Notes: generated by a model from the sequence alone, not told the origin. A DNA stretch of 64,000 nt from an uncultured Gammaproteobacteria bacterium (GCA_964609775.1 CAZSSJ010000001.1:22858-86857), one strand, 5' to 3'. Numbered from the stretch's first letter, positions 38,720 to 59,378 are shown. Made by a program: numbers and translations.

Positions 38720-39004
38720 TCAGGTTGCTATGATGGTTGATTTGCGACCAAAGTCGTCTTGCCAGATTTTGAGTTTTTGCCCTTTCGGATAGTGTGTCGT
38801 CACATCATTTCTTGAGTCTGGATATAGTTGGCTGACATTAAATCCTTCGCCTGGTGCCAGGGAAATGATTTCAAGTGGACTTTGTGCATCGGAAGATAAT
38901 TCCCACTTTTTTTCTCCTTGAGACAGTTCCCGGGGAAAACGGAATTTGGGTAACAGGCCTCCTTCTGGATGCCAAAAATTGTCATACTCTATCTTACAGG
39001 TCAT
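38720..39004 (-). CDS. Small hypothetical protein A (94 aa) behind the shared promoter module
   Basis: ATG lies 6 nt after the GAGAAT of the module. No family recognised. Confidence 0.5.
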   Translation of the reverse strand: MTCKIEYDNFWHPEGGLLPKFRFPRELSQGEKKWELSSDAQSPLEIISLAPGEGFNVSQLYPDSRNDVTTHYPKGQKLKIWQDDFGRKSTIIAT

Positions 39005-39039
39005 AGCCTTATTCTCTCTCTCTCTGCTTAATTTGTCAA
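39005..39039 (-). promoter_or_regulatory. Shared promoter module, copy A: TTGACA-N17[(GA)n]-GAGAAT-N6-ATG
   Basis: Minus strand reads TTGACAAATTAAGCAGAGAGAGAGAGAATAAGGCTATG. Confidence 0.6.
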
Positions 39040-39122
39040 GCTACGCTTGACAAAACCAGCCCCGGCGTTTTTTGTCGAGTTTGGGAGGGGCGGGTGAGCC
39101 TGATTTATGGTAAAATATGCTT

Positions 39123-39389
39123 ATGCTTAACTGGTCCACTGACGAAAAAGCCTTCAAGAAAAAAGACCCTAAGGGCTACAAATTGTGGAGGTTAACTCAG
39201 CTCATAAACTTCGGTCTTGACGGGGAAAAACTGTCGGAAAAAGAAGTCAGAAAAGCCTGGCCGAAGATCAAGGACAGGCTCGATCCCTACAAGGGCCGTT
39301 TGCTGGAGTTTCTTATATGGGGAAAACAATACTCACTCCCAAACAATATCAGTTTCTGGAACTGGCCGCTGCCGACCCAAAAATCGTAG
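39123..39389 (+). CDS. Small partner protein of AbiEii-like copy 2
   Basis: MLNWSTDEKAFKK..YKLWRLTQLINFGLDGEK. TAAAAT (39111-39116)-N6-ATG at 39123; the track ORF starts at 39117. Confidence 0.55.
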   Translation: MLNWSTDEKAFKKKDPKGYKLWRLTQLINFGLDGEKLSEKEVRKAWPKIKDRLDPYKGRLLEFLIWGKQYSLPNNISFWNWPLPTQKS

Positions 39390-39991
39390 CGAATTTCTAT
39401 CTCACTGGCGGCACGGCTCTGTCAGAATTTTATCTCCACCACCGCCTCTCTGAAGACATCGATCTTTTTTGCCCGAAAGAAGAAGTCGATCAAAAATTCG
39501 TAGAAATTTTCCTCAAAAAAATCTCACCAAAGATGGCAATCCAATATCTCCGCCCGACCGTATTCTTGGGTCTTGTCAGTTACAAATTGGTCTTCACGGA
39601 CAAAACAGAATTGAAAGTAGATTTTAACTATTACCCTTTCCTCCAAATCGATAGTGGTACCAAATTTAATAATCTGAGTGTCGACAGCCTTTATGATATT
39701 GCGGCAAACAAACTGCACACTCTTTTTATGAGACCACGATCGCGCGATTACGTGGATCTTTATTTTATTCTCCAGCAAGAAAATTATCCGTTAGAAAAGC
39801 TGATAATCGACGCCAAAATCAAGTTCGACTGGCACATTGATAACACGACTCTCGCCAGTCAATTCTCAAGAGTGCAAGATTTAGTTTCAACCGATTTACC
39901 AAAAATGCTCGTTCCTTTTGATCAAGAAAAGATGGAAAAATTTTTTCTTGATCTGGCGAAATCGCTCAAAGGAAAGATATTTAAAGAGTGA
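39317..39991 (+). CDS. Nucleotidyltransferase AbiEii/AbiGii-toxin-like protein (copy 2)
   Basis: FYLTGGTALSEFYLHHRLSEDIDLF. Overlaps the partner ORF by 73 nt. Confidence 0.6.
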   Translation: MGKTILTPKQYQFLELAAADPKIVANFYLTGGTALSEFYLHHRLSEDIDLFCPKEEVDQKFVEIFLKKISPKMAIQYLRPTVFLGLVSYKLVFTDKTELKVDFNYYPFLQIDSGTKFNNLSVDSLYDIAANKLHTLFMRPRSRDYVDLYFILQQENYPLEKLIIDAKIKFDWHIDNTTLASQFSRVQDLVSTDLPKMLVPFDQEKMEKFFLDLAKSLKGKIFKE

Positions 39992-40045
39992 GCAGGGTTG
40001 GGGCAAATTGCTTCGGAAAGCAGGGGCAGGTGGCTGACAGACACC

Positions 40046-40291
40046 TTAATAATTATCAAGAATTTTTTTGGCCTTTATTTTTCGTTTTTCTGCTTCTGGA
40101 CTGATTTTTAATTTTTGGTCGAATGGCGCTTTTTGGTAGTAGGGATGGCTGTATTTTGGAGTTTTGCTAAATTTCTCTGGCACGTTCTTCCAGCCACATG
40201 TAAGAAGTACTCTCGTCGCTGGACGCGGTTTGATTGGTTTTATTAAGTGAAGAGATTGTTCAGACACCCCTTCAGACACCCCTTCAGACAC
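40046..40291 (-). CDS. Small hypothetical protein B (81 aa), GTG start, N-terminal (SEGV)n from a 12-bp tandem repeat
   Basis: GAGAAT-N6-GTG. An ATG 2 nt upstream opens only a 16-codon frame. No family recognised. Confidence 0.35.
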   Translation of the reverse strand: MSEGVSEGVSEQSLHLIKPIKPRPATRVLLTCGWKNVPEKFSKTPKYSHPYYQKAPFDQKLKISPEAEKRKIKAKKILDNY

Positions 40292-40336
40292 ATGTTTATT
40301 CTCTCTCTCTCTCTCTCTCTCTGCTTAATTTGTCAA
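40292..40336 (-). promoter_or_regulatory. Shared promoter module, copy B: spacer 27 nt, (TC)11 on the plus strand
   Basis: TTGACAAATTAAGC + long (AG)n + GAGAAT. Confidence 0.5.
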
Positions 40337-40375
40337 GTTGGGACTGGCTGGGAATCGGAGGAAGGAAATCGCATC

Positions 40376-40404
40376 TTGACATCATTGCATCTTGATGAGA
40401 AAAT
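40376..40404 (+). promoter_or_regulatory. vapBC promoter giving a leaderless mRNA
   Basis: TTGACA-N17-GAAAAT-N6-ATG(40411). Confidence 0.55.
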
Positions 40405-40410
40405 GTGGGT

Positions 40411-40665
40411 ATGAACACAGTCAGAACGACGATTTCGCTGGAGGCGGATTTACACCGGCAAGTTTTGGCACAGGCCAACAACCTGGGCTTGTCCATGAGC
40501 GAAGTTGTTAACAAGCGACTGATGAATCCTAACTTCGGGAAGAGCCGGGCCCAGATTGAGGAAAAAATTGCTGAGGACCGGCGCTTTTTCAGGCAGTTGT
40601 CTCACAAGGGAAGAAAAGTTGATTTAGTTAAGGCTTTGAGAGAGGACCGGGACCGTGACAGTTGA
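40411..40665 (+). CDS. vapB: RHH/CopG-type antitoxin
   Basis: MNTVRTTISLEADLHRQVLAQANNLGLSMSEVVNKRL. Directly precedes and overlaps a PIN gene. The track ORF starts at 40405. Confidence 0.7.
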   Translation: MNTVRTTISLEADLHRQVLAQANNLGLSMSEVVNKRLMNPNFGKSRAQIEEKIAEDRRFFRQLSHKGRKVDLVKALREDRDRDS

Positions 40666-41074
40666 CAGGTTTGTCATTGACGCCAGCGTGGTTTTGGAAT
40701 GGGTGGAAACGAAAGAGTCGCCTCAAAAACAGAGGGCGCTTGGTCTCTATGAGCGGCTGGTGAAAGGTGAGGTGGCTTTTTCGGCGCCTTCATTTCTTCT
40801 GGTTGAGGTCATTAATGTGCTTTATTGGAAGAAAAGAAACACGGTTGAGGAGATCAGAGACTTTGTTGACCGGGTCAAGACTTCGGGGATTAATTTTGTT
40901 GACGGCGCGTTTTCAGCTGACGCCAGTGATGAGCTTCTGGATGCAGTTGGAAAGCATGAGATTACAGCCTATGACGCACAGTATGTGATTCTGGCAAAGA
41001 AGCTGGGAGTGAAGCTCCTGACGTTTGATGAGAAGTTGTTGGGGATTAAAGAAGTGGGTGCGGGGGAATGGTAG
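40655..41074 (+). CDS. vapC: PIN-domain toxin
   Basis: FVIDASVVLEW ... ITAYDAQYVILAKKLGVKLLTFDEKL. Confidence 0.8.
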   Translation: MTVDRFVIDASVVLEWVETKESPQKQRALGLYERLVKGEVAFSAPSFLLVEVINVLYWKKRNTVEEIRDFVDRVKTSGINFVDGAFSADASDELLDAVGKHEITAYDAQYVILAKKLGVKLLTFDEKLLGIKEVGAGEW

Positions 41075-41080
41075 AGAGAC

Positions 41081-41473
41081 CTACCATATTTCCTGTGGTC
41101 CATATTCCTGGTCGAAATCTTTTTGAGCTAAGCGAACATATTTCTCTTCGGTAATCTGCCAAGAGGTGCCGTCTCCCTTTGGATCCCATTCGGTGCGTAA
41201 TAGAACAGTGTTTGGTGTGCGGGTTTTCCAGCGAGATTCGCGAATGTCCGGCCTTTTTGTTCGAACCGCTTCATCATATTCATCGTATTTTCGACCCGTT
41301 AGTCCTATTCTTTCTTGAGCTAATCGACGGCCTTCTTCAGTCCAAGGACGAAATTCAATTCTCCTTCCTTGTTGGCCAGGTCCAAAACCAAGATTTGGAT
41401 GGAGAAAATAATCAAGTTCTATTTTATCCTGCTCAAATAGAGCTTGTGTCTCCGGCGATTGATTTACGGACAT
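41081..41473 (-). CDS. Small hypothetical protein C (130 aa), intact paralog of G
   Basis: Shares EGRRLAQERIGLTGRKY and TPNTVLLRTEWDPKGD with 48494-48877. Its stop is 6 nt from the vapC stop. Confidence 0.6.
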   Translation of the reverse strand: MSVNQSPETQALFEQDKIELDYFLHPNLGFGPGQQGRRIEFRPWTEEGRRLAQERIGLTGRKYDEYDEAVRTKRPDIRESRWKTRTPNTVLLRTEWDPKGDGTSWQITEEKYVRLAQKDFDQEYGPQEIW

Positions 41474-41508
41474 GGCCTTATTCTCTCTCTCTCTTCCTAA
41501 AAAGTCAA
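41474..41508 (-). promoter_or_regulatory. Shared promoter module, copy C (TTGACT variant): spacer 17, N6, ATG
   Basis: TTGACTTTTTAGGAAGAGAGAGAGAGAATAAGGCCATG. Confidence 0.6.
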
Positions 41509-41597
41509 ATTTGGTTGGGCCGGAAAAGTGGTCGTGTCTTATTTATGCGATCGCATTTTTAAGAAGTCAGTTGGTTGATAAGAGAAGATAGGATAAA

Positions 41598-41626
41598 TTG
41601 ACATTATTAATTGATTCGACTATAAT
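41598..41626 (+). promoter_or_regulatory. Consensus promoter of the wHTH/NTase pair
   Basis: TTGACA-N17-TATAAT, then a leader with AAGAGG before the ATG at 41647. Confidence 0.6.
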
Positions 41627-41646
41627 CGAAAAGAGGCATAAAACAT

Positions 41647-42234
41647 ATGAAGAAAATCGAACTCATTTGGCGGGAGATTCTAGAGAACGGACAGAAAGAT
41701 CCCGTTTTTGAACAGAAGGAGCTGGCGTCAAGACTGGGATTGTCCACGAGCACGGTTTTTGCGGCGCTTGAGCCATTGAGAGCAATTGGAGCGGTAACGG
41801 TTGGCGGCCGGGGGTTTCGGTTGACTAATTTTTCCAAAGTGCTCTTCTTTTGGGCGACGCATCGAAATTTGGCCAAAGATATCGTTTACAAAACGAGGGT
41901 TGATCTGCCAATGGTCGAAATTGAGGGCCTGGTTGACAACGAAACGATTTACGGGGCATATAGTGCCGGCCGCAGGCTTCTGGGGCAGGCTCCGGCTGAC
42001 TATGACAAAGTCTATCTTTATGCCTCAAAAACAGACAATTTGATCAGGAGATTTCCGAGGGCGGGGGGGGCAGCCAACGTTTTTGTCCTGCAGGCTGATC
42101 CGGGCTTGCCGGCTTTTGGCAAAATGACCCCGGTGTCGCAGACGTTTGTTGATTTGTGGAATTTGCCGGACTGGTTTGCGCAGGATTTTTTGGAGGCTTT
42201 AAAGGAGAAATTTTATGGCGGATTATTATCATGA
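41647..42234 (+). CDS. Winged-HTH protein (AbiEi/MarR-like; candidate antitoxin or regulator)
   Basis: QKELASRLGLSTSTVFAALEPLRAIGAV HTH. Overlaps the downstream NTase-fold gene by 20 nt. Confidence 0.5.
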   Translation: MKKIELIWREILENGQKDPVFEQKELASRLGLSTSTVFAALEPLRAIGAVTVGGRGFRLTNFSKVLFFWATHRNLAKDIVYKTRVDLPMVEIEGLVDNETIYGAYSAGRRLLGQAPADYDKVYLYASKTDNLIRRFPRAGGAANVFVLQADPGLPAFGKMTPVSQTFVDLWNLPDWFAQDFLEALKEKFYGGLLS

Positions 42235-42826
42235 TTTAGTGACTGACAAGAGTTGGAAGACTTTGCAGGAACTTAAGAGCCAGGTGGATTTTGTGCTCAT
42301 CGGCGGGTGGGCGGTTTATTTATATACAAAAGCTTTGAAGTCGAAAGACATTGACATTATTGTCAATTTTGACCAACTGGACAGATTAAGGAGTCAATTT
42401 GAGGTCGTCAAAAATGAGCGGTTGAAGAAATATGAAGCGAGGCGCGAGGAAGTCCAGATTGATGTCTATTTGCCGCACTTCAGCGAAATTGGAGTGCCCA
42501 TTGAGGAGGTTGTCAAAAGGGTCGTTTCCCGGGAGACGTTTGTGGTTCCGGTGCCGGAGGCGCTTCTCATTTTGAAGCAGTTTATTTTGGGGCAGAGGGG
42601 GCTGTCGGCCAAGGGCCAAAAAGACCGACTGGACATCTTGTCGATCCTCCTTTCGGTTGAGGTGAACTTTAGGGAATATCGCAAATTAACGCAGGCGTGG
42701 GGCTTGACTTCTTTTCCTTCGGAGCTGGCGGAACTTGTTTCGACAACGGTCAGAATTCCGGAGCTATCGGTTGATGAGTATCAATGGTCGAAGGTGAAAA
42801 AGAAGGTTTTGAACTTGGTGGCTTAG
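42215..42826 (+). CDS. Nucleotidyltransferase-fold protein (candidate toxin partner)
   Basis: LIGGWAVYLY...SKDIDIIV matches the G[GS]-x-D.D minimal NTase motif. Confidence 0.5.
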   Translation: MADYYHDLVTDKSWKTLQELKSQVDFVLIGGWAVYLYTKALKSKDIDIIVNFDQLDRLRSQFEVVKNERLKKYEARREEVQIDVYLPHFSEIGVPIEEVVKRVVSRETFVVPVPEALLILKQFILGQRGLSAKGQKDRLDILSILLSVEVNFREYRKLTQAWGLTSFPSELAELVSTTVRIPELSVDEYQWSKVKKKVLNLVA

Positions 42827-42888
42827 CGTCGGGTTTTTAGTTGTCTCCCGTGTTTAGATTTGTGGTCCGAGAGCTTGAGAATATGACA

Positions 42889-43344
42889 TTAGTTTTGAGG
42901 TTGGAGCATTTTGATGAGACTGCCTAGTCTTGCTGCTTGATCTTCGCCGATCGTTGATGCAGTCTGGGCTGCACCGAGGAATTCTTCACGTAGAAATTGT
43001 CTTTCAGGGTTCCTTCCTAGGGCTACTGCGTCCTTTCCCTCTGCTGAGGCCGCGCTTTCGAGCCATTTTGCCTGGTCTATTTTCAGATAATTTATTGCTT
43101 TTTGCCTGGCAGCCGGGTCGTTGTTTTTTAATCCCGTGGCAATCTGTTCGATTACTGCGCGGCCAGCTTCGTACATGGCCCGGATTTCCCCTTGATCATC
43201 GCCCCAACCCTCGCCTGCTTTTTCAGCCGCCTCAAGCTCATGCTCAAAGTAGGTTATCGGATTAGCGTAGATTTCGTTCGATTCGGCTTCGTACCAATGA
43301 GGGAATCTGCCAGTTTGAGTTGTTTTTTCTGTTCTGTCAGCCAT
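42889..43344 (-). CDS. Small hypothetical protein D (151 aa from the ATG at 43344)
   Basis: GGAGGT lies 7 nt upstream of the ATG. The track ORF starts at a TTG at 43359. No family recognised. Confidence 0.5.
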   Translation of the reverse strand: MADRTEKTTQTGRFPHWYEAESNEIYANPITYFEHELEAAEKAGEGWGDDQGEIRAMYEAGRAVIEQIATGLKNNDPAARQKAINYLKIDQAKWLESAASAEGKDAVALGRNPERQFLREEFLGAAQTASTIGEDQAARLGSLIKMLQPQN

Positions 43345-43395
43345 TTGAATTACCTCCAAGGTCTATTGTCTCTCTCTCTCTTCCTAAAAAGTCAA
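43345..43395 (-). promoter_or_regulatory. Shared promoter module, copy D (TTGACT variant): spacer 19, -10 GACAAT, SD-containing leader
   Basis: TTGACTTTTTAGGAAGAGAGAGAGAGACAATAGACCTTGGAGGTAATTCAAATG. Confidence 0.55.
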
Positions 43396-43440
43396 ATTTT
43401 GGCTTTGCGTTTTGGCTACGAAGTTGATATACTCTGAGAA

Positions 43441-43716
43441 ATGCAAACTACGCTTCTTAACTACCGAATCATTGTTGAGCCCGACAGCCAAACTGGAACA
43501 GGCAAGCTTGGATACACAGCCTATGCACCCACCTTGGGAGTGGCTGATGATGGAAAGACAATTGAAGAGGCAATTAAAAATGTTCGGGGCGCAATTGAAG
43601 CATTTGTGGAAAGTTTGATCGTTGATGGGCAACCAGTGCCAACAGACCGAGTGGAGCAAGATCTTGTGGCGACGGCACAAATTTCGGTTAACGGCCCGGT
43701 TCAATTCGCTTTTTAA
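43441..43716 (+). CDS. hicB: HicB-family antitoxin
   Basis: YRIIVEPDSQTGTGKLGYTAYAPTLGVADDGKTIEEAIKNVRGAIEAFVESL. TATACT-N7-ATG. Confidence 0.75.
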   Translation: MQTTLLNYRIIVEPDSQTGTGKLGYTAYAPTLGVADDGKTIEEAIKNVRGAIEAFVESLIVDGQPVPTDRVEQDLVATAQISVNGPVQFAF

Positions 43717-43937
43717 TGCCTGAGATTCCTCAAATTAAACCTCGGAATGTGGAAAAAGTGCTACTGAAAAGAGGTTTTGTCGGCCGGACAACAAAAAGCA
43801 GTCATGTTGTTTTTGTTCATAAGGATGGCAGGCGCACAGTTGTTCCGGTTCACAATAAACCGGTGAGCACAGGAACTCTTCGGGCAATCCTTCGCCAGGC
43901 AAAGATTTCCGTGGAGGAGTTTTTGGAGGAAGTTTAA
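43716..43937 (+). CDS. hicA: HicA-family mRNA interferase toxin
   Basis: KPRNVEKVLLKRGFVGRTTKSSHVVFVHKDGRRTVVPVHNKPVSTGTLRAILRQAKI. Confidence 0.8.
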   Translation: MPEIPQIKPRNVEKVLLKRGFVGRTTKSSHVVFVHKDGRRTVVPVHNKPVSTGTLRAILRQAKISVEEFLEEV

Positions 43938-44374
43938 TTGGGAGATGGGGTTTCTGGTGGACTTGAGAACTTTTCTAGTTGTTTTGCTAGAGCCCTGAAA
44001 CCTGACAAAAACCATGTCTCGCCTTCATCCTCACTTTTTTTTGGTTCGAGACCGTACTCTTCAGACATTGCGTTGACAACTCCTGAGAAGTCGTTCAGGG
44101 TCTGAGCAGTTCTGAGGGCGTCTTGCCACAACTGTATACCTTGTTCCGCTGCCGCATACATTGCTGGGTCGTCTTGTGGATCTACACGGTTCCTGATTAT
44201 TAGCTCATTATTGAGTCTTGTTTGGGCGAGCAGAATTGCATCCTGCCGAGCTTTTCGGTCGGATACCGATTTTCCAACATATCTGTTTCTAAACTCAGCT
44301 GGTAGTCTGTTTTCCAGAACTGCCCAAGCTTTCCTGGGATTAAAGTTCTCTTCAACATTATTTTTTTCTGACAT
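43934..44374 (-). CDS. Small hypothetical protein E (146 aa)
   Basis: The ATG follows GAGAAT-N7. Its 3' end overlaps the hicA stop by 4 nt. No family recognised. Confidence 0.5.
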   Translation of the reverse strand: MSEKNNVEENFNPRKAWAVLENRLPAEFRNRYVGKSVSDRKARQDAILLAQTRLNNELIIRNRVDPQDDPAMYAAAEQGIQLWQDALRTAQTLNDFSGVVNAMSEEYGLEPKKSEDEGETWFLSGFRALAKQLEKFSSPPETPSPN

Positions 44375-44420
44375 TTGTTTTATTCTCTCTCTCTCTCTCT
44401 CTCTCTGCTTAATTTGTCAA
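44375..44420 (-). promoter_or_regulatory. Shared promoter module, copy E: spacer 27 nt, (TC)11
   Basis: TTGACAAATTAAGC + (AG)n + GAGAATAAAACAAATG. Confidence 0.5.
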
Positions 44421-44455
44421 GCTTGGACAATCCAGAATGGCCCAGGAGAATTTTA

Positions 44456-44496
44456 GGGAAAATGTTCGATGTTTTGTGATCGCGTTTTATGGAACA
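44456..44496. repeat. Palindromic element copy 2 (left arm and core each degenerate by one base)
   Basis: GGGAAAATGTTCGATGTTTTGTGATCGCGTTTTATGGAACA. Sits between the ruvB stop and module E. Confidence 0.75.
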
Positions 44497-46825: not shown

Positions 46826-47104
46826 TTAAGTTTTTAAGCAGTTGGCGTTTTGCTGGAGGGTCCTCTCACTTATTCTTGAGATTGAAGATAGGCTAGCTCC
46901 CCCTTCCGTGCTGCCGAATCCCCCACAAGAGATTGCTTCAGGACTGGTTTCCTTAAATAGGGGGCAGCTTAGGCAGTATCTTCGGAACAGCTCTGACGGA
47001 CCGAAGAATTCAGGGTCTTCATAGGACACTATTAGCAGAAAGCCGGCATAGTCACTGGTCGGGGAGTATCGTATTGTTGCTTCAGGCTGCTCGACTTCTA
47101 ACAT
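46826..47104 (-). CDS. Small hypothetical protein F (92 aa)
   Basis: The ATG follows GAGAAT-N7 of the module. No family recognised. Confidence 0.45.
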   Translation of the reverse strand: MLEVEQPEATIRYSPTSDYAGFLLIVSYEDPEFFGPSELFRRYCLSCPLFKETSPEAISCGGFGSTEGGASLSSISRISERTLQQNANCLKT

Positions 47105-47140
47105 GGCCTTTATTCTCTCTCTCTCTGCTTAATTTGTCAA
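47105..47140 (-). promoter_or_regulatory. Shared promoter module, copy F: spacer 17, N7, ATG
   Basis: TTGACAAATTAAGCAGAGAGAGAGAGAATAAAGGCCATG. Confidence 0.6.
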
Positions 47141-47164
47141 GTTGGGACAGTTCAATGAGTCTTT

Positions 47165-47205
47165 GGGGAAATGTTCCATGGAATGCGATCGCGTTTTATG
47201 GAACA
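47165..47205. repeat. Palindromic element copy 3 (best-preserved)
   Basis: GGGGAAATGTTCCATGGAATGCGATCGCGTTTTATGGAACA, in the divergent region between gene F and fic. Confidence 0.8.
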
Positions 47206-47291: not shown

Positions 47292-48365
47292 ATGGCTGAT
47301 ATTAATCGATTTGACCAGCGGCTGGAGAATTTGCCGTCAGGAATTTGGGCTAGGGTTGCCCGGATTGATGAGCTGAAGGGGAGGTTTGTGGCGGGAGCAG
47401 AGCTTGGGCCGCAAGCTTTAAAGGGGCTCCGAAGATCGGTTCTGGTGACTTCTTCCGGAGCCTCGACCCGGATTGAGGGAGCCAAACTTTCTGATGAGGA
47501 CGTGGAGAAAATGATGCGGGGCATTGATATTGTGAAGTTTGCTAACCGGGACAAACAAGAGGTCCAAGGCTACTTTGAGCTGTTACAAAATGTGTTTGCT
47601 TCCTGGGAGGATTTGAGTCTTTCAGAAGGAACGATCAAACATTTTCACCAAGAGCTTCTGAAGTACGTGGAGAAGGACAAGTTACATCGGGGAGAGTATA
47701 AGCACGACGAGAACAAAGTGGAAATGATCAACGAGGCAGGGGAGTCGGTTGGATTGTTGTTTGATACGACTCCAGCTTACCTTACACCAAAAGAAATGCT
47801 CGAGCTCGTGGAGTGGACACAAGGGGCACTTGAAGAGAAAAGATTCCACACCCTGCTCATTATTGGAAATTTCCTGGTGGAGTTTCTCAATATTCACCCG
47901 TTTACTGACGGAAACGGCCGTTTGTCACGGATCTTAACCAATGTGCTTCTTGTTAAGGCAGGCTACGCATTTATGCCTTATGTTTCACACGAGAAGCTTG
48001 TTGAGGGCAATAAGCCAGATTACTATCTGGCCTTAAGAAGTAGCCAGCGAACTTTTAAGGCACCCGGGGAGACGGTTGTTCCTTGGCTGGATTTCTTTCT
48101 CGCAGTTCTTCTTAAACAGGCGCAGACGGCAGTCGATTTACTCTCGGCGGCCACTATTGAACGGACGCTGTCAACAAAACAAATAGTTGTTTGGCAATAC
48201 CTTCAATCGAAGGAGGAGGCTACTCCGGGAGAGGTTGCCAGTCAAACGGGAGTGCCCCGGCCAACAGTTAATCAGGCCTTGGGTAAACTGGTGCGGCTCA
48301 AAATGGTTGAAAAGATTGGTTTGGGCCGGGCGACGAGATACCGGAAGCAAAGGCGAGAAATATAA
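47292..48365 (+). CDS. fic: Fic/DOC family protein with C-terminal wHTH
   Basis: Fic motif HPFTDGNGRLSR. C-terminal ...EVASQTGVPRPTVNQALGKLV. Confidence 0.85.
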   Translation: MADINRFDQRLENLPSGIWARVARIDELKGRFVAGAELGPQALKGLRRSVLVTSSGASTRIEGAKLSDEDVEKMMRGIDIVKFANRDKQEVQGYFELLQNVFASWEDLSLSEGTIKHFHQELLKYVEKDKLHRGEYKHDENKVEMINEAGESVGLLFDTTPAYLTPKEMLELVEWTQGALEEKRFHTLLIIGNFLVEFLNIHPFTDGNGRLSRILTNVLLVKAGYAFMPYVSHEKLVEGNKPDYYLALRSSQRTFKAPGETVVPWLDFFLAVLLKQAQTAVDLLSAATIERTLSTKQIVVWQYLQSKEEATPGEVASQTGVPRPTVNQALGKLVRLKMVEKIGLGRATRYRKQRREI

Positions 48366-48493
48366 TCCCCTCGTGTTAGACTGATTGGGGTTCGAGTTTT
48401 GAATGAAAGCTTGGGGTGAGGCTTCTGATTTTTGATGAGAAGTTGTTGGGGATTAGGGATGTGACTGTGGAGAAGCTCCCGGATTGATCAGAG

Positions 48494-48877
48494 CTATTTA
48501 GGTTCGTGGCGGGAATATTCTTCCTCGAAGTCTTCAGGTGGGAGCCGGACATATCTTTCTTCTTTCGTCGGCCAAGTGTCGTCTCCTTTTGGATCCCATT
48601 CTGTCCGTCGCAGGACCACGTTTGGGGTGCAGGTTTCCAGAACAGACTTGCGGGCGAGGCCAAATTCTTGGTCAAAAGTTACTTCCTGGTATTTTCGGCC
48701 GGTTAGACCTATTCTTTCTTGGGCAAGTTGACGCCCTTCCGAAGTGTGAGGAGTAAAGTCCACCCACTTGCCTGCTTGGGTAGGTCCAAGTCCTAGCTCG
48801 GCGGTTAGGAACTATTCCAGGCGACCTTTGTCGTCTTTAATTTGTTGTTCATTTCTTTCTTGAGAGATTGCAGACAT
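48494..48877 (-). pseudogene. Small gene G, paralog of C, interrupted by an in-frame TAG at 48812-48814
   Basis: From the ATG at 48877: MSAISQERNEQQIKDDKGRLE-stop-FLTAELGLGPTQAGKWVDFTPHTSEGRQLAQERIGLTGRKY... The stop aligns with the Tyr of ...IELDYFLHPNLGFGP in C. Confidence 0.6.
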
Positions 48878-48912
48878 GGCTTTATTCTCTCCCTCTCTTC
48901 CTAAAAAGTCAA
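48878..48912 (-). promoter_or_regulatory. Shared promoter module, copy G (TTGACT variant, interrupted GA tract): spacer 17, N6
   Basis: TTGACTTTTTAGGAAGAGAGGGAGAGAATAAAGCCATG. Confidence 0.55.
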
Positions 48913-48936: not shown

Positions 48937-48976
48937 GGGGAAATGTTCAATGAAACGCGATCGCGAGTGTGGAACG
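48937..48976. repeat. Palindromic element copy 4 (degenerate)
   Basis: GGGGAAATGTTCAATGAAACGCGATCGCGAGTGTGGAACG. Confidence 0.7.
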
Positions 48977-50262: not shown

Positions 50263-50299
50263 GTTTTAGTTATTGAGTGTTTATATTAAAATAATTGGT

Positions 50300-53301: not shown

Positions 53302-54333
53302 TCAATCTAAGATTTCTTCATCCGGTTCGTTAGCCTGTTTTTGGAGTAGAGGGAAATCGACAGTGGTGACGGCGTTTTTCGTGATGGGAAAGAGACCGGG
53401 ACTCACAGCAATGAAACCCTTGGGGGCCGAGGGGGACCACTTCTTCAAAAGTAGCTGCTTCCCACTTTTGCAGTAGAAATAGTTATTGCCAGTGGGGATT
53501 TTGACCGGGCGGTTGATGCCGGCACAGGTCTCAAATTTAAAGCCTGCCGGGATGAGCGGTTTTTTAATTTTATAGTCGCCGGTAGGAATTTCCCCAAAAG
53601 AGTAGTTTTCTTTGCCGGTGTTTTTTCCGGAATCAAGGATGGCGACTAGTGTGTTTGCGCCAGAGTCGACTTTAGTCAGAGTTAAACTGGCTTTTTTGAC
53701 CGAGGGTTCGACGGACTCGGCGTTTTTTCTGGCGTTGTGGTCGGTTTCGTCGTCATGCCAGATGTAGCCTGTCAGGGGGCCTTTGTCCGAGGCGGTTTGG
53801 ATTTTTTCGACCTGGATTTCGCAGGTGGAGTTGTTTTGAGCGGAGGGGTACCAGAGACTCGCGTTAGTGCCGCAGGTAGTTTTAGAGACCTTCCAATTCG
53901 AGGGAAGGTTAGTGCTGCCGGTTTCAGGGCAACTCGTACAAAGAGTGATTTGGTAGCCGGCGCCAGTTGTTGAGTCAGACCAGGTGGCACAGCCGGCGCC
54001 GTTGCAGGCGGAAGGACTGTAGGTTTGGACACGGCCTTTTTGGCAGACCGGGTCGGAGCAGGAGGCGTTGCAGCCGGTTGGACAAGCGGACATGAAGGTG
54101 GCGCGGACACTCACTTGGCTGGGGTATTTCTGGCCAGTGGCCCGGTCTTTTATTTTAATCGTCAGCGGGTTTCCGAAGGGTGGTGGCGGGGGGGGCGGGG
54201 GGGGGGGGGGGGGGCGGGCTTTGCTCGTAGCCGGAACAAAGCAAGGGAGCCGTGTTGCTGCAGTAGGAGTTGTAGTCCGAATAGGCAGGCTTGATGAGTC
54301 CGGAAGTGAGGCAAGTTTTGACGTCCGGAACAC
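53302..54333 (-). CDS. Cys-rich / SdrD-B (CnaB-like) domain region; probably the C-terminal part of the upstream M64-like gene
   Basis: Its first 40 residues are low-complexity and read the alternate frame of 54155-55594. Real-looking sequence starts after the shared poly-Pro (FGNPLTIKIKDRATG...). GYIWHDDETDHN...YSFGEIPTGDYKIK. Confidence 0.5.
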   Translation of the reverse strand: MFRTSKLASLPDSSSLPIRTTTPTAATRLPCFVPATSKARPPPPPPPPPPPPFGNPLTIKIKDRATGQKYPSQVSVRATFMSACPTGCNASCSDPVCQKGRVQTYSPSACNGAGCATWSDSTTGAGYQITLCTSCPETGSTNLPSNWKVSKTTCGTNASLWYPSAQNNSTCEIQVEKIQTASDKGPLTGYIWHDDETDHNARKNAESVEPSVKKASLTLTKVDSGANTLVAILDSGKNTGKENYSFGEIPTGDYKIKKPLIPAGFKFETCAGINRPVKIPTGNNYFYCKSGKQLLLKKWSPSAPKGFIAVSPGLFPITKNAVTTVDFPLLQKQANEPDEEILD

Positions 54334-55594
54334 ACCAGTTGGTGGTCCAGACGTAAGAGGAATCTCCGATCATGGGAGTCCCCGAGGGAATTGGGGCGAA
54401 GAGATTGATGGCGCCACGCATGGCGGGCTCGTCAACGGGGTCAAGGTGATAACCGGATTCTGACCAGAGTGTCTCCATAATGCAGCTGCCAGAGGTGGAT
54501 TTGTAACGGTTGGTGTAGGTGCAGATGGTGTAGCAGTTTGTTCCGGGGATTCCTGACCATTTGCCACAAGCAGAAGAGGTATCACAGTTTGCGTGAATGT
54601 TTCGGTTGGGGTTGGTTTCAATTTTGTTGTAATCATATTCATCATTTAAGTTTCCGATGCCATGACCTAATTCATGATAGAGGGTAAGTCCGGGAAAAGG
54701 CAGATTTGATTGTGATCGTGACATGAGGGCATACTTGATTGGCGGATAATAGGACCAGCCAATCTTGTCGTCGATGCCTTCAAGAATAACAATGAAGTCG
54801 TAGTTGGTTTGGGAAGCGATGTTGTAGATTAAAGCACTGTCGCAATCAAGATTTTCAGCGTTATTAAAACTGTTACACAAGATTTGATCGTTGTGGATTT
54901 TCGCGAATCTGATTTTTGATCGATATTCGTTCCAAGGTGACTGAGCCAGGAGGAAGTTAGTCATACTGCTAACGTCCGCATCAAATAGGTCAAAGTCGGA
55001 ATAGCGGTCGCTTATAAAGGTAAGGTCAAGGTAACCGTCAGAGGAAAGACCCGACTGGGGAGCCGGAGTGTTAGATGACTTGACAACATAACTTTTTTTA
55101 AGGATTGCCGATTGAATCTTTAGGCTGTCTAAGACTTGGGTCTTTTTTGGCTGGCTATGGCGAATTTGGATTGTAGCGCCCGTTTGGTAAGGGAAAGAGA
55201 TTACCACTCGGGGCTCGGAAAAAATCTTATCCTGTCTATTGATTTGTTTTTTTTCAGAAGCGAAAGTTTCGATGGCGAGACTGTCAGTAAATTTAATGCT
55301 TGCTTTCCAGGTGGTTTTTCCGTTTAAAACTTGTTCGATTTCATCAGTTTCACTGTCAGTTTTTTGGTTTGGCAAGTAGGGGGTATAGCCATTGTTGGCG
55401 AGGGCTTTTTGAATGGAGATTTTGCCGGTGGTGGGGTTTTTGGTTAAGACGAGGATGAGGTTGGTGTCTGCTTTGAGGCCAGTAGCTTTGTCTTGGAGAC
55501 GGGTTTGTTGGGTGACAATAAATAGAGTTGCACCTAGGAGGGGGAGGAGGAGAAGGACGAGAGTGAGGCTGAGGGTGGCGGCACCTTTTTTCAT
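54155..55594 (-). CDS. Secreted M64 (IgA-peptidase-like) zinc metalloprotease, truncated by a frame change in the poly-C tract
   Basis: Signal peptide. HELGHGIGNLNDEYDY matches the M64-type HExxHxxxxLxDEY. Ends 15 codons after the poly-Pro. Confidence 0.65.
   Translation of the reverse strand: MKKGAATLSLTLVLLLLPLLGATLFIVTQQTRLQDKATGLKADTNLILVLTKNPTTGKISIQKALANNGYTPYLPNQKTDSETDEIEQVLNGKTTWKASIKFTDSLAIETFASEKKQINRQDKIFSEPRVVISFPYQTGATIQIRHSQPKKTQVLDSLKIQSAILKKSYVVKSSNTPAPQSGLSSDGYLDLTFISDRYSDFDLFDADVSSMTNFLLAQSPWNEYRSKIRFAKIHNDQILCNSFNNAENLDCDSALIYNIASQTNYDFIVILEGIDDKIGWSYYPPIKYALMSRSQSNLPFPGLTLYHELGHGIGNLNDEYDYNKIETNPNRNIHANCDTSSACGKWSGIPGTNCYTICTYTNRYKSTSGSCIMETLWSESGYHLDPVDEPAMRGAINLFAPIPSGTPMIGDSSYVWTTNWCVPDVKTCLTSGLIKPAYSDYNSYCSNTAPLLCSGYEQSPPPPPPPAPPATTLRKPADD
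54188..54218. repeat. G8-C-G18-C-G3 homopolymer tract (poly-Pro codons on the minus strand)
   Basis: Read directly: G run 54188-54195 and G run 54197-54214. Confidence 0.95.
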
Positions 55595-55651
55595 GGGTAT
55601 AGTTATAGTATTTAGATTATTACTCCCACAAGGCCTGTCAAGGGTTCAGGA

Positions 55652-55794: not shown

Positions 55795-55805
55795 AGGATT
55801 AGCCT

Positions 55806-56408
55806 ATGGATCAGGAAAATTGGGGGAATCAGGGAGATCAGTTTAAGAAAGCGGGCTACCAGTATCTGTTGGCTTGGAAAATAACTGTTCCCATTTATGA
55901 TTACACTGTCATTTTTTGCAGGAAGTATCGCAGATTGCTCTCTTCTGAGCGGACTTATGACCAGATGGTGCAGGCGGCCAGAAGCGGGACACAAAATGTT
56001 CCGGAGGGAAATCAACAGGCAAGTCTTGAAGGCTACATCAAATTGACTGGTGTTAACAAAGCCTCATTGGAGGAACTATTGAGGGATTTCCTGGCGTTTG
56101 CCAGACAGAATCAGATTCCAATTTGGTCAAAGGAAAGGTGTGTCAGGGAAATTAGGGAAATTGGGGAGATCTGGGGGATTCTTAAAAATAATAAAACGCT
56201 CCCTGACGATCCCAATTTCCCGAATTTCCCTGACAAATTGGAGATCGGCGTCAATTTAATGATAACATTGGTCCATCAAGCAATTTTTCTTCAAGGGAAA
56301 TTAAAGGAGTCTTTGGAGAAAAAGTTCATCGAGGAAGGTGGTTTTAGAGAGAACTTGTTTAGAAAGAGAATGGACTGGCGAAGGAGGCAGAATGGACAGG
56401 AAGTATGA
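55806..56408 (+). CDS. Four-helix-bundle protein (23S rRNA IVS / Avd-like family) with C-terminal suffix domain
   Basis: YQYLLAWKITVPIYDYTVIFCRKY...TYDQMVQAARSGTQNVPEG...ASLEELLRDF matches the family pattern from memory. Confidence 0.55.
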   Translation: MDQENWGNQGDQFKKAGYQYLLAWKITVPIYDYTVIFCRKYRRLLSSERTYDQMVQAARSGTQNVPEGNQQASLEGYIKLTGVNKASLEELLRDFLAFARQNQIPIWSKERCVREIREIGEIWGILKNNKTLPDDPNFPNFPDKLEIGVNLMITLVHQAIFLQGKLKESLEKKFIEEGGFRENLFRKRMDWRRRQNGQEV

Positions 56409-58977
56409 ACCGGCAGAGATAGAGAAGAAGTGGCCCTCCTTCGCCAAGGCTTCGGACGGGCAAGCAGGACGTTATAACCATCGGGAGATTGAGCATAAGT
56501 GGCAGGAGGTGTGGGAAAAAGAGAAACTATATCTAACTCCAAAACCTGATGCCGAGCATCCGAAGAGATACATTTTGGATATGTTTCCCTACCCGTCGGG
56601 GGCGGGACTTCATGTTGGGCATATGGAAGGCTACGTGGCCACGGATGTTATTGTCAGATACCTGCGGATGAAGGGGCTTTCGGTTCTTCACCCGATGGGC
56701 TGGGACGCGTTTGGCCTGCCGGCCGAGAATTATGCGATTAAAGAAGGAATTGCCCCTGATAAGTCGACGCACGAGAATATCAAGAATTTTAAGTATCAGC
56801 TTCAACTTTTGGGACTGTCTTATGATTGGTCCAAAGAAATAGATACATCTAGCCCGAAGTATTACAAATGGACACAGTGGTTGTTTACGCTGCTGTTTAA
56901 AAAGGGCTTAGCCTATAAAAAGAAAGCGCCGGCGAATTGGTGCCCCAAGGACGAAACGGTGCTGGCCAACGAGCAGGTGGTTGATGGGAAATGCGAACGG
57001 TGCGGGACGGCGGTAGTGCAAAAGGAATTGGAGCAGTGGTTTTTTAAGATTACGGATTATGCGGATAAGCTGATTTCCGGTCTGGACAAAGTCGATTGGC
57101 CGGAATCGACCAAGACGCAGCAGGTTAACTGGATTGGGAAGAAAGAGGGCATCGAAATTACTTATGAGGTGGTAGGTGTTCCTGACGAAATTACTGTTTT
57201 TACGACTGCTCCGGTTAACTTTGGGATGACCTTTTTGGTTTTAGGACCAGAACACCATTTCGTCCAGAAAATTATTTCTGGTGAAATTAAGATTTCTTCT
57301 GAGACTCAAAAAGAAGTTAAGGATTATGTTGAGGCGGCGGGTAAAAAGACAGAACTGGAGAGGATCGCTGCGGGTAGGGAGAAGACAGGGGTGTTTACCA
57401 CTTTATATGCAATTAACTCCATTAATGGTAAAAAAGTGCCGATTTATGTGACTGATTTTGTTTTAGGGCATGTGGGTACTGGTGCGGTTCAAGGTTGCCC
57501 GGCGCATGATCTTAAAGACTTTCAGTTTGCAAAGAAGTTTAACTTGCCGATCGTTAGAGTTGTTGAGGGTCCCGATGGTGATGCTGGACCGGTAGAGAGA
57601 GAAGATCAGATTATTGAAAAGGGAATGCGGGGTACATTTATTAATTCAGAGTTTTTGAACGGCTTGAGTTTTGAGGGAGGACTGCAAAAGACGATGGACT
57701 ATTTTGTTGAAAAAGGCGTTGGTAGGAGGGTGGTGACCTATCACATTCGGGATTGGCTGATTTCGAGGCAGAGATATTGGGGGTGCCCGATCCCGATGGT
57801 GTTTTGCGAAAAAGACAGCTGGCAGCCTGTTCCTGATTCAGAACTACCTATTTTGTTACCAACTGATATAGATTTTCGACCGACCGGGGAATCACCGATT
57901 GCCAGATCAGGGTCTTTCCAAAAAGGGGTAAGGTGCCCGGTTTGCGGGGAGGCAGCCAAGCGGGAGGTAGACACCATGGACACTTACGTCGACTCCTCAT
58001 GGTATTTTTACCGCTTTGTAGATCCGGATAATAACAAAAAATTCGCTTCGAAGAAGGCTCTCGAAACATGGATGCCGGTGGACATTTATGTTGGCGGCGG
58101 GCATGTGGTCCAGCACCTGCTGTTTGCCCGATTCTTCCACAAAGTTCTCGTCGATGCAGGATATATTAAGGGTGATGGCGCTGGTGAGCCTTTCCTAAAG
58201 CTTAGAGCGCCGGGATGGATTTTGGGCCCGGACTCTCGCAAGATGAGCAAGCGCTGGGCGAACGTTATCACTCCGGAGGAAGTGGTTGCCAAACATGGAG
58301 CGGACACGATGCGGATGTATGAGATGTTTATGGCGCCGTTTGAAGTCGATAAACCGTGGAATGTCAACTCGGTGGCTGGGGTGCAGCGCTTTTTGAGCCG
58401 AATTTACGGTTTGTTTGAAAGATCTTATCAGTTGAAGGACGCAGTTGCTGGCGAAGCAATGGCTCGTGAGATTAATAAATTGGTTTTTAAGGTCGGCAAA
58501 GATATTGAGGGTTTCAAGTTCAATACGGCAGTGGCTGCCATGATGGAGTTTGTGAATCAGGTACAGGCAGGATTGAAGACGAAGGAGCAGGGTGAAGGAA
58601 GCTACACCTGGAGAGTGGTTTGGGAGAAGTTTCTGACCGTTTTGGCGCCGTTTGCGCCGCATTTGGCGGAGGAGCTGTGGTCCCACTTCGCCAAGGCTTC
58701 GCGGGACAAGCATGGATATGTTTCTGTCCATCAGCAGTCGTGGCCGGAGGTTGATGAGAAATATCTGGGCCAGGAAAGCAGGACGATCGTGGTGTCGATT
58801 AATGGCAAGGCGAGAGCGACATTGAAAATGAGCAATGGGCAATCCTCAATGAGCAATAGCCAGGAGGAGGTTGAGAAGTTGGCGAGAGGAGATCAGAATG
58901 TGGCGAAGTGGCTGGAAGGGAAAGAGGTTAAGAAAGTGGTCTACGTACCAGGCAAGATTGTCAACTTCGTCGTTTAA
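56392..58977 (+). CDS. leuS: Leucine--tRNA ligase
   Basis: FPYPSGAGLHVGHMEGY (HIGH region), KMSKRW (KMSKS). ATG at 56392 after GAAGGAGG; the track ORF opens at 56338. Confidence 0.95.
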   Translation: MDRKYEPAEIEKKWPSFAKASDGQAGRYNHREIEHKWQEVWEKEKLYLTPKPDAEHPKRYILDMFPYPSGAGLHVGHMEGYVATDVIVRYLRMKGLSVLHPMGWDAFGLPAENYAIKEGIAPDKSTHENIKNFKYQLQLLGLSYDWSKEIDTSSPKYYKWTQWLFTLLFKKGLAYKKKAPANWCPKDETVLANEQVVDGKCERCGTAVVQKELEQWFFKITDYADKLISGLDKVDWPESTKTQQVNWIGKKEGIEITYEVVGVPDEITVFTTAPVNFGMTFLVLGPEHHFVQKIISGEIKISSETQKEVKDYVEAAGKKTELERIAAGREKTGVFTTLYAINSINGKKVPIYVTDFVLGHVGTGAVQGCPAHDLKDFQFAKKFNLPIVRVVEGPDGDAGPVEREDQIIEKGMRGTFINSEFLNGLSFEGGLQKTMDYFVEKGVGRRVVTYHIRDWLISRQRYWGCPIPMVFCEKDSWQPVPDSELPILLPTDIDFRPTGESPIARSGSFQKGVRCPVCGEAAKREVDTMDTYVDSSWYFYRFVDPDNNKKFASKKALETWMPVDIYVGGGHVVQHLLFARFFHKVLVDAGYIKGDGAGEPFLKLRAPGWILGPDSRKMSKRWANVITPEEVVAKHGADTMRMYEMFMAPFEVDKPWNVNSVAGVQRFLSRIYGLFERSYQLKDAVAGEAMAREINKLVFKVGKDIEGFKFNTAVAAMMEFVNQVQAGLKTKEQGEGSYTWRVVWEKFLTVLAPFAPHLAEELWSHFAKASRDKHGYVSVHQQSWPEVDEKYLGQESRTIVVSINGKARATLKMSNGQSSMSNSQEEVEKLARGDQNVAKWLEGKEVKKVVYVPGKIVNFVV

Positions 58978-59026
58978 CCGTTTTTATCTGTGTAAAATGA
59001 ATTCAGAAGATAATGAGTTAAGATCT

Positions 59027-59344
59027 TTATCCCTTAGGTTTTATTTTGGGCTTCAGATTTGTATCTAAGTTGAGCTTTGAGAGAATTTCGTTTATGCCTT
59101 CGTCTCCTGGATGAAAATGTTTCCAACCATCATCTCGAGTGTATCCTCTCTCAGACCCGGTTCCGCGGCTTGCGAGTCTGATATAGAATACCGTTTCACT
59201 GTTGTCGTATAAAGTTAAACTGCCAGACCAGATTCCATCGCCACCGGCAAAAGCACGACTAGGATCAAGAGCAATCATATCTGCGTGGTTTAAAGAAACA
59301 GTTCTCACGATAGTTGGACGATCTTTTTGGTCTGGATCTTTCAT
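59027..59344 (-). CDS. Small hypothetical protein H (105 aa)
   Basis: The ATG follows GAGAAT-N7 of the module. Divergent from phd-relE. No family recognised. Confidence 0.5.
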   Translation of the reverse strand: MKDPDQKDRPTIVRTVSLNHADMIALDPSRAFAGGDGIWSGSLTLYDNSETVFYIRLASRGTGSERGYTRDDGWKHFHPGDEGINEILSKLNLDTNLKPKIKPKG

Positions 59345-59378
59345 TTCGCCTATTCTCTCTCTCTGCTTCTTTTGTCAA
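59345..59378 (-). promoter_or_regulatory. Shared promoter module, copy H: spacer 15, N7, ATG
   Basis: TTGACAAAAGAAGCAGAGAGAGAGAATAGGCGAAATG. Like copy A, it is followed upstream by the palindrome TTGTCAAGC-nnn-GCTTGACAA. Confidence 0.55.

Follow-up and report, generated by a model that had tools for sequence, protein, structure and literature searches.

Eight small open reading frames (ORFs) in the 64,000-nucleotide (nt) stretch of DNA analyzed here (the window) are each preceded, on the minus strand, by a copy of one short module, TTGAC-W5-A(A/G)G(C/A)-(AG)n-AAT. The best reading of this module, judged by its motifs, is a sigma-70-type promoter with TTGACW as the -35 element, GAGAAT as the -10 element and an (AG)n repeat inside the spacer. 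We favor, with modest confidence, the view that slippage of the repeat sets the strength of the promoter, which would make expression of the small genes tunable or phase-variable. The window is part of contig MFJK01000007.1 (GCA_001780905.1), from a Rifle-aquifer metagenome-assembled genome (MAG) labelled Candidatus Gottesmanbacteria (Microgenomates, Candidate Phyla Radiation (CPR)). The full name of the MAG, RIFCSPHIGHO2_01_FULL_47_48, is obtained from proteins on other contigs in the same accession series (OGG184xx-OGG194xx). The surroundings are those of a core chromosome, i.e. ATP synthase, giant surface-type proteins, GH26 enzymes, ruvCAB, leuS and comEA/comEC.

The modules are termed A to H, and the genes that follow them carry the same letters (Table 1). 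The pattern TTGACWWWTTARGMAGAGAGAG, with up to two mismatches allowed, has eight matches in the window where 0.00 are expected from 100 dinucleotide-preserving shuffles. In its general form the module displays TTGAC followed by A and AATTAAGC, by T and TTTTAGGA or by A and AAAGAAGC, then (AG)n, AAT (CAAT in D), 6-7 nt and a start codon. The 13-nt tracts of A, C, D and F read (TC)6 on the plus strand, and the 23-nt tracts of B and E read (TC)11. Module G has the sole interrupted tract among the eight, with one A-to-G change (AGAGAGGGAGAGA). Two sequence types are found among the window modules, which are near-identical within the genome; C, D and G have AGGA instead of AAGC. Every dinucleotide repeat of at least five units detected by a general repeat scan of the 64 kb belongs to a module.

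A preliminary description of this DNA, made from the sequence alone, had listed these eight sites with spacers of 17, 19, 15 and 27 nt. All are found at the positions it gave when TTGACW is taken as the -35 and GAGAAT (GACAAT in D) as the -10. It had also placed the start codon 6-7 nt past the -10 in all eight, and this is correct for seven (A, B with a GTG, C, E, F, G and H) but not for D, where a separate leader, a 24-nt stretch containing GGAGG, lies between the tract and the ATG.

The reading as a promoter comes from motif geometry, the tract being flanked by TTGACW and GAGAAT, and from other promoters of the window that have no repeat. In a consensus scan of the region for -35 and -10 elements 17 nt apart, A, C, F and G are among the matches. 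A perfect TTGACA-17-TATAAT is present at position 41598, with a leader that has a ribosome-binding site, before a gene pair for a helix-turn-helix (HTH) protein and a nucleotidyltransferase. The other repeat-free promoters are those of vapB (40376, TTGACA-17-GAAAAT-GTGGGT-ATG), phd (59469, TTGACA-17-TACGAT-TGTGGT-ATG), abiE (TGGTAAAAT-ATGCTT-ATG) and hicB (TTGCGT-17-TATACT-7-ATG). In these four toxin-antitoxin operons (AbiE, VapBC, HicBA and Phd-ParE) the -10 is 6-7 nt ahead of the ATG and there is no ribosome-binding site; the leaderless-looking starts are at 39100-39119, 40376-40413, 43405-43443 and 59469-59506. Thus, from these four promoters and the one at 41598, the organism evidently uses -35/-10 promoters, 17-nt spacers and leaderless starts. 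The geometry of the non-repeat promoters is reproduced exactly by a module with a 13-nt tract.

A -10 located 6-7 nt ahead of the start, with no ribosome-binding site, is displayed by seven of the eight window modules and by 25 of the 43 family members described below. The short distance suggests that the module mRNAs are probably leaderless. The earlier claim of a repeat inside a sigma-70-type spacer can be retained for a promoter assigned by motif, with the same geometry at vapB, phd, abiE, hicB and 41598. This sequence-level evidence suggests that sigma-70-type leaderless promoters are present in Microgenomates.

Other readings of the module were set aside. A sigma-H-like AGGA...GAAT promoter in C, D and G was dropped, since its spacing is a poor fit and AAGC is found in most members. 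A divergent promoter that uses the -35 of the module on the other strand was rejected, as it would not be at a consistent distance from the divergent start codons. A structured RNA or tRNA at the repeats was rejected as well: in the 64 kb there are no Rfam covariance-model matches at gathering score, and ARAGORN finds no tRNA or tmRNA gene.

Tract length in related assemblies and genomes

Independent assemblies of the same population, from other samples, were retrieved by exact-protein look-up, and several are 100% identical over 6-20 kb. Tract lengths are those of consensus assemblies, not of individual reads. Among assemblies that are 99.6-100% identical to the window, the tract is 21, 23 or 25 nt in B, 23 or 25 nt in E, and 13 or 15 nt in C. 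The B tract is 21 nt in L006 and 25 nt in L116, the latter being otherwise identical over 968 bp; the E tract is 25 nt in L003. The C tract is 15 nt in L007, which is otherwise identical over 4.9 kb except for a scaffold gap. There are in addition two odd variants. In L005 the C module has a 15-nt tract and AC is missing from the -35, with identity otherwise over 8.4 kb, and in L112 the B module has 23 nt with one C inserted at the start of the tract, with identity otherwise over 1,592 bp. The tracts of A, D, F, G and H are constant between assemblies (H is 11 nt in 8 of 8 contigs).

In the 36-48 kb island all indels between assemblies fall in modules, and in these consensus assemblies the tracts of near-identical genomes differ in length far beyond the background indel rate. 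A long tract elsewhere in this genome, on another contig, has lengths of 25, 27, 29 and 29 nt across four samples, whereas two short ones on those contigs are fixed at 13 and 11 nt; a locus of Candidatus Shapirobacteria has tracts of 13, 15 and 13 nt. The tracts are therefore mutational hot spots, more so when long, as slippage would predict. The preliminary description had made its proposal depend on repeat-length variation, and near-identical assemblies do differ at B, E and C.

The module is not confined to the window. Public contigs contain 85 unique matches to the pattern, and in 43 of these the tract is followed directly by AT, which completes GAGAAT (about 6% expected). In 25 of the 43, an ORF of 40 or more amino acids (aa) begins with a start codon 8-9 nt past the tract; in about ten more, GGAGG or GAGGTG is found in a short leader. 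The tract has AAGC before it in 35 of 43, and TTGAC has a C before it in 32 of 43; further upstream there is no conservation among the 43 loci. An explicit GGAGG 3' of the tract in D, L042, L061 and L043 shows that the tract does not itself serve as ribosome-binding site. The ATG stays 8-9 nt from the end of the tract while the tract ranges from 11 to 35 nt, and therefore a change in tract length is a direct change in the -35/-10 distance. Tracts of 11 nt are present at 21 of the 43 loci, of 13 nt at 13, of 15 nt at two and of 23-35 nt at seven. The long tracts elsewhere are 25, 27, 29, 31 and 35 nt and drift in 2-nt steps.

Outside the window contig, the source genome has seven or more further modules, i.e. 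three on L031 (13, 11 and 27 nt), two on L040/L042 (13 and 35 nt) and two on L100 (13 and 13 nt), which gives at least 15 modules in all. The module is also present in Candidatus Shapirobacteria (L018/L081/L094, G+C 0.35) and in several further MAGs and groundwater or sediment contigs of 34-50% G+C. These family counts represent a sample and not totals: the metagenome scan gave about 96 stretches and missed contigs known to match, the scan of genome contigs did not return the source genome itself, and the collection scans required a tract of at least 11 nt with a search pattern that itself required ARGM(AG)5.5. IMG/VR viral contigs have no match to the pattern, and a phage origin of the module was rejected on this basis. 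One module on L031 (7060-7109, minus orientation), with an 11-nt tract (CAATAAACCCATG...), has no ORF of at least 40 aa behind it. It is located between a retropepsin-like pair and a VapBC pair and may be a decayed member.

Proposed tuning by slippage and its alternatives

According to the proposed mechanism, the -35 would be (AC)TTGACW and the spacer would consist of W4-5, AAGC (AGGA in C, D and G) and (AG)n. The -10, GAGAAT, would be made up of the last GAGA of the tract and AT. Transcription would start 7-8 nt past the -10 at the A of the ATG, producing leaderless mRNAs that encode small soluble orphan proteins, although a minority such as D would have a ribosome-binding site in a leader some 20 nt long. 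Because a pure dinucleotide tract lies inside the spacer, replication slippage would move the -35 and the -10 apart or together by 2 bp at a time. With 13 nt the spacing is 17 bp, as in the non-repeat promoters of the organism, and the promoter is predicted to be active. With 11 or 15 nt it is 15 or 19 bp and the promoter is predicted to be weak, and with tracts of 23-35 nt the -35 would be out of reach and the promoter off or nearly off. The outcome would be heritable, gene-by-gene variation in expression of at least 15 accessory small genes amid toxin-antitoxin operons. Tunable or phase-variable expression is plausible; that tract length acts on expression, and with what adaptive benefit if any, is inferred.

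Several observations weigh against this mechanism. The B and E tracts are long in every sampled assembly and are never 13 nt, and the step from 23 to 13 nt is one of five units. As no sampled population has B or E at 13 nt, simple reversible on/off toggling is not what is seen. The ORFs of B and E stay intact and hence could be expressed in some other way. The 11-nt tracts found in 21 of 43 family members result in 15-nt spacers, which would be poor for a classical sigma-70 promoter. With about half of the family in this class, a rule that 17 nt means on is no universal setting; either the members with 15-nt spacers are in a low state or the 17-nt optimum is not lineage-wide. Short tracts (11-13 nt) are nearly invariant between samples, thus switching, if any, would be slow. 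Some of the tract differences could be assembly artefacts, the L005 and L112 variants having an odd appearance. The products are cytoplasmic orphans, unlike the usual phase-varied surface or restriction-modification genes, and they lack the association with surfaces, host interaction or restriction-modification that is usual for phase variation, although it does not define it. In addition, the conserved AAGC and the AG composition suggest sequence-specific recognition and not spacing alone.

Phase-variable spacing, as first proposed, is upheld in part: the tract in the spacer is polymorphic (B, E and C), but neither reversible on/off states nor a general on setting at 17 nt is borne out. The argument that the long alleles differ from the short ones by 10 bp, one helical turn, does not stand. 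Modules B and E are 96% identical over 50 nt, and for this reason their shared length is probably inherited; the other long tracts, at 25, 27, 29, 31 and 35 nt, differ in 2-nt steps. Helical-turn phasing was therefore rejected.

Sequence-specific recognition leads to an alternative that is possible but, in our judgment, rather unlikely. AAGC(AG)nAATA would be a promoter or operator element read by a regulator specific to the lineage or by the polymerase, as a purine element resembling an extended -10, and its instability would be a by-product. The genes would form a co-regulated set, a length of 11-15 nt would be irrelevant, and long tracts would be tolerated or mildly harmful. Retention of AAGC (35 of 43) and of pure AG across lineages of 34-50% G+C goes beyond the needs of spacing, tracts of 11 nt and of 13 nt have similar frequencies, short tracts keep their length from sample to sample, and the B and E ORFs are intact despite spacers of 27 nt. 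The -35 of A and H also lies within a perfect palindrome, TTTTGTCAAGC-N3-GCTTGACAAA, which is operator-like. However, no candidate regulator has been identified, and the invariant parts of the module are the -35 TTGACW and the distance from -10 to ATG, as in the ordinary promoters of the window. Modules C, D and G have AGGA and not AAGC, a repeat of variable length would be an unusual binding site, and the apparent conservation is inflated by a search pattern that itself required ARGM(AG)5.5.

It is improbable, in our estimate, that the module is a duplicated promoter cassette in which the AG microsatellite is a neutral passenger, a strong promoter having been copied in front of small ORFs that were recently acquired or arose de novo, in some cases together with a palindromic, terminator-like element upstream. 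Such copying would account for near-identical modules of two types, for the approximately 100 bp that E, F and G have in common upstream, for the segmental C-to-G duplication and for orphan genes with a weak codon-usage signal downstream; the length variation is mostly in long tracts, as for any microsatellite. However, the tract is located exactly between the -35 and the -10, where its length is not neutral for a sigma-70-type promoter, and its purity is kept across Gottesmanbacteria, Shapirobacteria and other MAGs. The single interrupted tract adjoins the single pseudogene (G), and the 64 kb have no other dinucleotide repeats of at least five units. That the tract is transcribed from an upstream start, as a pseudo ribosome-binding site, a standby site or an RNA-stability element of the 5' untranslated region (UTR), appears very improbable even though it is purine-rich and near the start codon. 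The 43 loci have no conserved sequence upstream of TTGAC, the ATG keeps its distance of 8-9 nt from the end of tracts that range from 11 to 35 nt, leadered members have a separate canonical GGAGG downstream of the tract, GAGAG would be expected to pair poorly with the CCUCC anti-Shine-Dalgarno sequence, and there is no Rfam family match. The tract as ribosome-binding site or 5' UTR element was rejected as the principal reading on account of the downstream GGAGG and the lack of conservation upstream of TTGAC.

The small open reading frames and their surroundings

The module genes are real ORFs. Seven of them comprise 799 stop-free codons, and the annotated frame is the best-scoring of the three in 7 of 7. 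Mismatches between C and G at codon positions 1, 2 and 3 number 39, 32 and 59, an excess at the third position. A coding signal, the absence of which had been named as an argument against the proposal, is thus present in the stop-free codons, the best frame and the third-position excess. Codon usage of the module ORFs is atypical and its signal is weak. The median length is 88.5 aa for the module ORFs and 89 aa for the 45 distinct downstream proteins described below, and 92% of the module ORFs are at least 60 aa long versus 20% for random ATGs. The ORFs on the strand opposite to the small genes have no Pfam matches, and an origin of the small ORFs as antisense or decayed known genes was rejected on this ground.

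The eight window products are 81-151 aa in length and mutually dissimilar except for the C/G pair, as the preliminary description had it; the G sequence has an in-frame TAG at codon 22 and is therefore a decaying paralogue of C. That description recognized no family for them, and searches of Pfam, PHROG and PADLOC with the eight proteins likewise give no match. The window proteins are singletons at 90% identity, and a homologue search with gene E returned only E itself. An exhaustive HMMER search with gene C shows, apart from the G fragment, nothing but weak matches to repeats of two giant proteins: residues 67-115 (41129-41275) match 14 repeats in a 1105-aa LPD23 (large polyvalent protein) protein (E = 9e-7) and five repeats in an 884-aa protein (E = 1e-4). 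AlphaFold2 models of D and H have a predicted local distance difference test (pLDDT) score of 58-59, i.e. low confidence. The 5' end of gene B (40255-40291, minus strand) has GTGTCTGAAGGG three times in tandem, which encodes an N-terminus of SEGV SEGV SEQ..., and a 16-codon ATG ORF in another frame overlaps the start of gene B from 2 nt upstream.

Among 45 distinct downstream proteins there is only one three-member family, besides two sample variants of an L031 ORF that are identical where they overlap. None of the 45 has a hydrophobic segment or a signal-peptide-like N-terminus. The suggestion of a defence-related regulon stays speculation, as the products match no defence family and have neither signal peptide nor membrane segment.

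The island alternates between toxin-antitoxin operons on the plus strand and module genes on the minus strand (Table 1). In other genomes the divergent neighbors are often toxin-antitoxin genes (PIN in four cases, MazE-like in one, RnlA-like in one) and sometimes a housekeeping gene. Of the notion of shared regulation in a TA-rich island, the accessory island among toxin-antitoxin and Abi modules is retained; the whole window is 50% G+C, and only the 36-44.4 kb part is modestly AT-richer (G+C 0.42-0.47 vs 0.50-0.57 in the flanks). Convergent gene ends are 0-63 bp apart. A repeat search of the window shows no shared attC-like 3' element, and precomputed Pfam matches for genes of the region include no integrase domain. 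An integron gene-cassette array was rejected because neither attC-like repeats nor an integrase were found and there is no room between convergent genes.

Table 1. Modules, small genes and neighboring operons of the window. TTGAC starts at the higher coordinate of each module; tract and spacer lengths are in nt.
Feature	Position	Strand	Tract	Spacer	Remarks
Module A	39005..39039	-	13	17	TTGACA-AATTAAGC-(AG)6.5, GAGAAT-AAGGCT, then ATG; tract 13 nt in all assemblies seen
Gene A	38720..39004	-			94 aa, orphan, leaderless start (predicted)
Module B	40292..40336	-	23	27	GTG 6 nt past GAGAAT
Gene B	40046..40291	-			81 aa, orphan
Module C	41474..41508	-	13	17	TTGACT-TTTTAGGA-(AG)6.5, GAGAAT-AAGGCC, then ATG
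Gene C	41081..41473	-			130 aa; only family member is paralogue G
Module D	43345..43395	-	13	19	TTGACT-TTTTAGGA-(AG)6.5, GACAAT; short leader with GGAGG, then ATG
Gene D	42889..43344	-			151 aa, orphan; predicted all-helical, low confidence
Module E	44375..44420	-	23	27	ATG 7 nt past GAGAAT
Gene E	43934..44374	-			146 aa, orphan, no homologues found
Module F	47105..47140	-	13	17	
Gene F	46826..47104	-			92 aa, orphan; directly upstream of ruvC-ruvA-ruvB, same strand
Module G	48878..48912	-	13	17	interrupted tract
G	48494..48877	-			C-like paralogue, in-frame TAG
Module H	59345..59378	-	11	15	TTGACA-AAAGAAGC-(AG)5.5, GAGAAT-AGGCGAA, then ATG
Gene H	59027..59344	-			105 aa, orphan
AbiEi-like/AbiEii operon	39117..39991	+			divergent from A, convergent with B; leaderless (predicted)
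Promoter and vapB/vapC (PIN domain)	40376..41074	+			divergent from B, convergent with C; leaderless (predicted)
HTH protein and DUF6036 nucleotidyltransferase	41598..42826	+			canonical promoter, ribosome-binding-site leader; divergent from C, convergent with D
hicB/hicA	43441..43937	+			divergent from D, convergent with E (3' ends overlap)
Fic-domain protein with HTH	47292..48365	+			divergent from F, convergent with G
Promoter and phd/parE	59469..60036	+			divergent from H; leaderless (predicted)

Module F may also drive ruvC-ruvA-ruvB, because gene F is located directly upstream on the same strand. The G locus is part of a segmental duplication (48376-48912 vs 41000-41508) in which the 3' end of vapC (copy at 48407-48470), gene C and the promoter were copied. 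The duplicate has 72-87% identity, one nonsense codon and the interrupted tract.

Modules E, F and G share approximately 100 bp of upstream sequence, including a GCGATCGC palindrome. A longer REP-like (repetitive extragenic palindrome) form, TGTTCCAT..GCGATCGC..ATGGAACA, is found upstream of all three and also between convergent genes at 37.6 kb. The copies are at 37619-37667, 44448-44496, 47157-47205 and 48944-48964, with another at 41528-41554. The palindrome core equals the cyanobacterial HIP1 octamer. The element may be a terminator or insulator that moves along with the promoter cassette.

The A and H palindrome, one arm of which is the -35, spans 39032-39060 and 59365-59393. Both modules have a further TTGACAAA box about 25 nt upstream, after ...AACGCCRGGGCTRG, and the AACGCCAGGGCTAGTTTTGTC part is kept in a different MAG (L013, ~7640-7700, minus orientation). 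The palindrome looks like an operator common to the divergent toxin-antitoxin promoter and the module.

The window has some further features of note. Two very large tandem ORFs of 5325 aa and 2038 aa are present at 5946-28067 on the plus strand. An inverted repeat at 56141-56235, just upstream of the leuS start region, has 44-nt arms (77% complementary) and a 7-nt loop and matches no Rfam family. A poly-C tract at 54188-54214 (C18-G-C8 on the minus strand, encoding poly-proline) is located in the overlap of the minus-strand ORFs 53302-54333 and 54155-55594; these are 343 and 479 aa long. In the near-identical contig L115 (1437-1460), from another sample, this tract is C17-T-C5 and thus shorter by 4 nt, and the annotation has one gene of 762 aa. 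The site represents either phase variation of a large protein (weak Peptidase_M64 match) through a repeat inside its gene or an error of assembly in a homopolymer.

Significance and comparison with known systems

To our knowledge, repeat-driven phase variation is found almost only in host-adapted pathogens, in surface structures and restriction systems. Here that principle would be part of a promoter cassette common to numerous unrelated orphan genes of uncultured, ultra-small groundwater bacteria. A broader proposal, which we regard as tentative and on balance doubtful, is that the module is a portable contingency promoter used throughout Microgenomates, a fixed cassette (-35, AAGC, (AG)n, GAGAAT, leaderless ATG) put time and again before unrelated, fast-evolving genes for small cytoplasmic proteins near toxin-antitoxin and Abi modules, by which each cell lineage would express a random subset of its accessory repertoire, e.g. 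proteins for interaction with hosts or phages. If true, this would be the first phase-variable regulon described in the CPR, and no earlier one would have a single repeat-bearing promoter in front of many non-homologous genes. Confirmation would provide a mechanism of population-level heterogeneity for CPR bacteria. A large set of uncharacterized small proteins, co-located with toxin-antitoxin modules, would become coherent and probably conditionally useful. The signature TTGAC-N5-AAGC-(AG)n-AATA-N5-6-ATG would serve to find such genes and to read their predicted on/off state from metagenomes.

The closest known case is the fimbrial hifA/hifB promoter of Haemophilus influenzae, which has a (TA)9-11 tract in its -35/-10 spacer (van Ham et al. 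1993, as cited in PMC2651432). From the account given there, hif and the modules are alike in having a dinucleotide repeat in the -35/-10 spacer, in the 2-bp steps and in serving divergent genes. On the same account hif is one locus for a surface organelle in a host-adapted pathogen, with switching demonstrated experimentally, whereas here at least 15 loci per genome have one common module that is known from sequence. The (AG)n repeat differs further in that it would form part of the -10, and the genes are predicted to be leaderless and encode small cytoplasmic orphans of a groundwater CPR bacterium.

Homopolymers form the promoter spacers of Mycoplasma hyorhinis vlp, with poly(A), and of Neisseria meningitidis porA and opc, with poly(G) and poly(C), respectively. 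The homopolymer spacer of Neisseria porA also appears in PMC3639595. As proposed for the modules, repeat length in vlp, porA and opc sets the -35/-10 spacing and hence promoter strength, and vlp has several genes with tracts of their own. They differ from the modules in having mononucleotide tracts that change in single-nucleotide steps, homologous families of surface proteins, and graded or on/off expression.

In Mycoplasma gallisepticum, each vlhA (pMGA) gene has a (GAA)n repeat upstream and, as far as is known, is expressed only at n = 12. Here again, many genes of one genome have the same purine-rich repeat in the 5' control region. However the vlhA repeat is a trinucleotide located upstream of the promoter, it probably acts through a binding factor, and the genes encode paralogous lipoproteins.

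Promoters of leaderless genes in Actinobacteria and Deinococcus have a -10 box 6-8 nt before the start codon. The leaderless transcriptome of M. tuberculosis is among the work cited in PMC12641261. These promoters resemble the modules (6-7 nt), and the toxin-antitoxin operons of the window, in the short distance from -10 to ATG and in lacking a ribosome-binding site; they differ in that they are not known to have a built-in repeat and are not confined to small orphan genes.

The island is similar to integron cassette arrays in its dense run of small orphan and toxin-antitoxin genes between core genes, with a short repeated sequence for each unit. Unlike attC, which is at the 3' end, the repeated sequence is a putative promoter at the 5' end of the ORF, and the orientation of the units alternates. 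Literature searches gave no work in which phase variation or repeat-bearing promoters are connected with CPR, Microgenomates or Gottesmanbacteria. Compared with the systems above, what appears to be new is the combination of one module before many non-homologous genes, a repeat that would be part of the -10, predicted leaderless starts and cytoplasmic orphan products in a CPR lineage.

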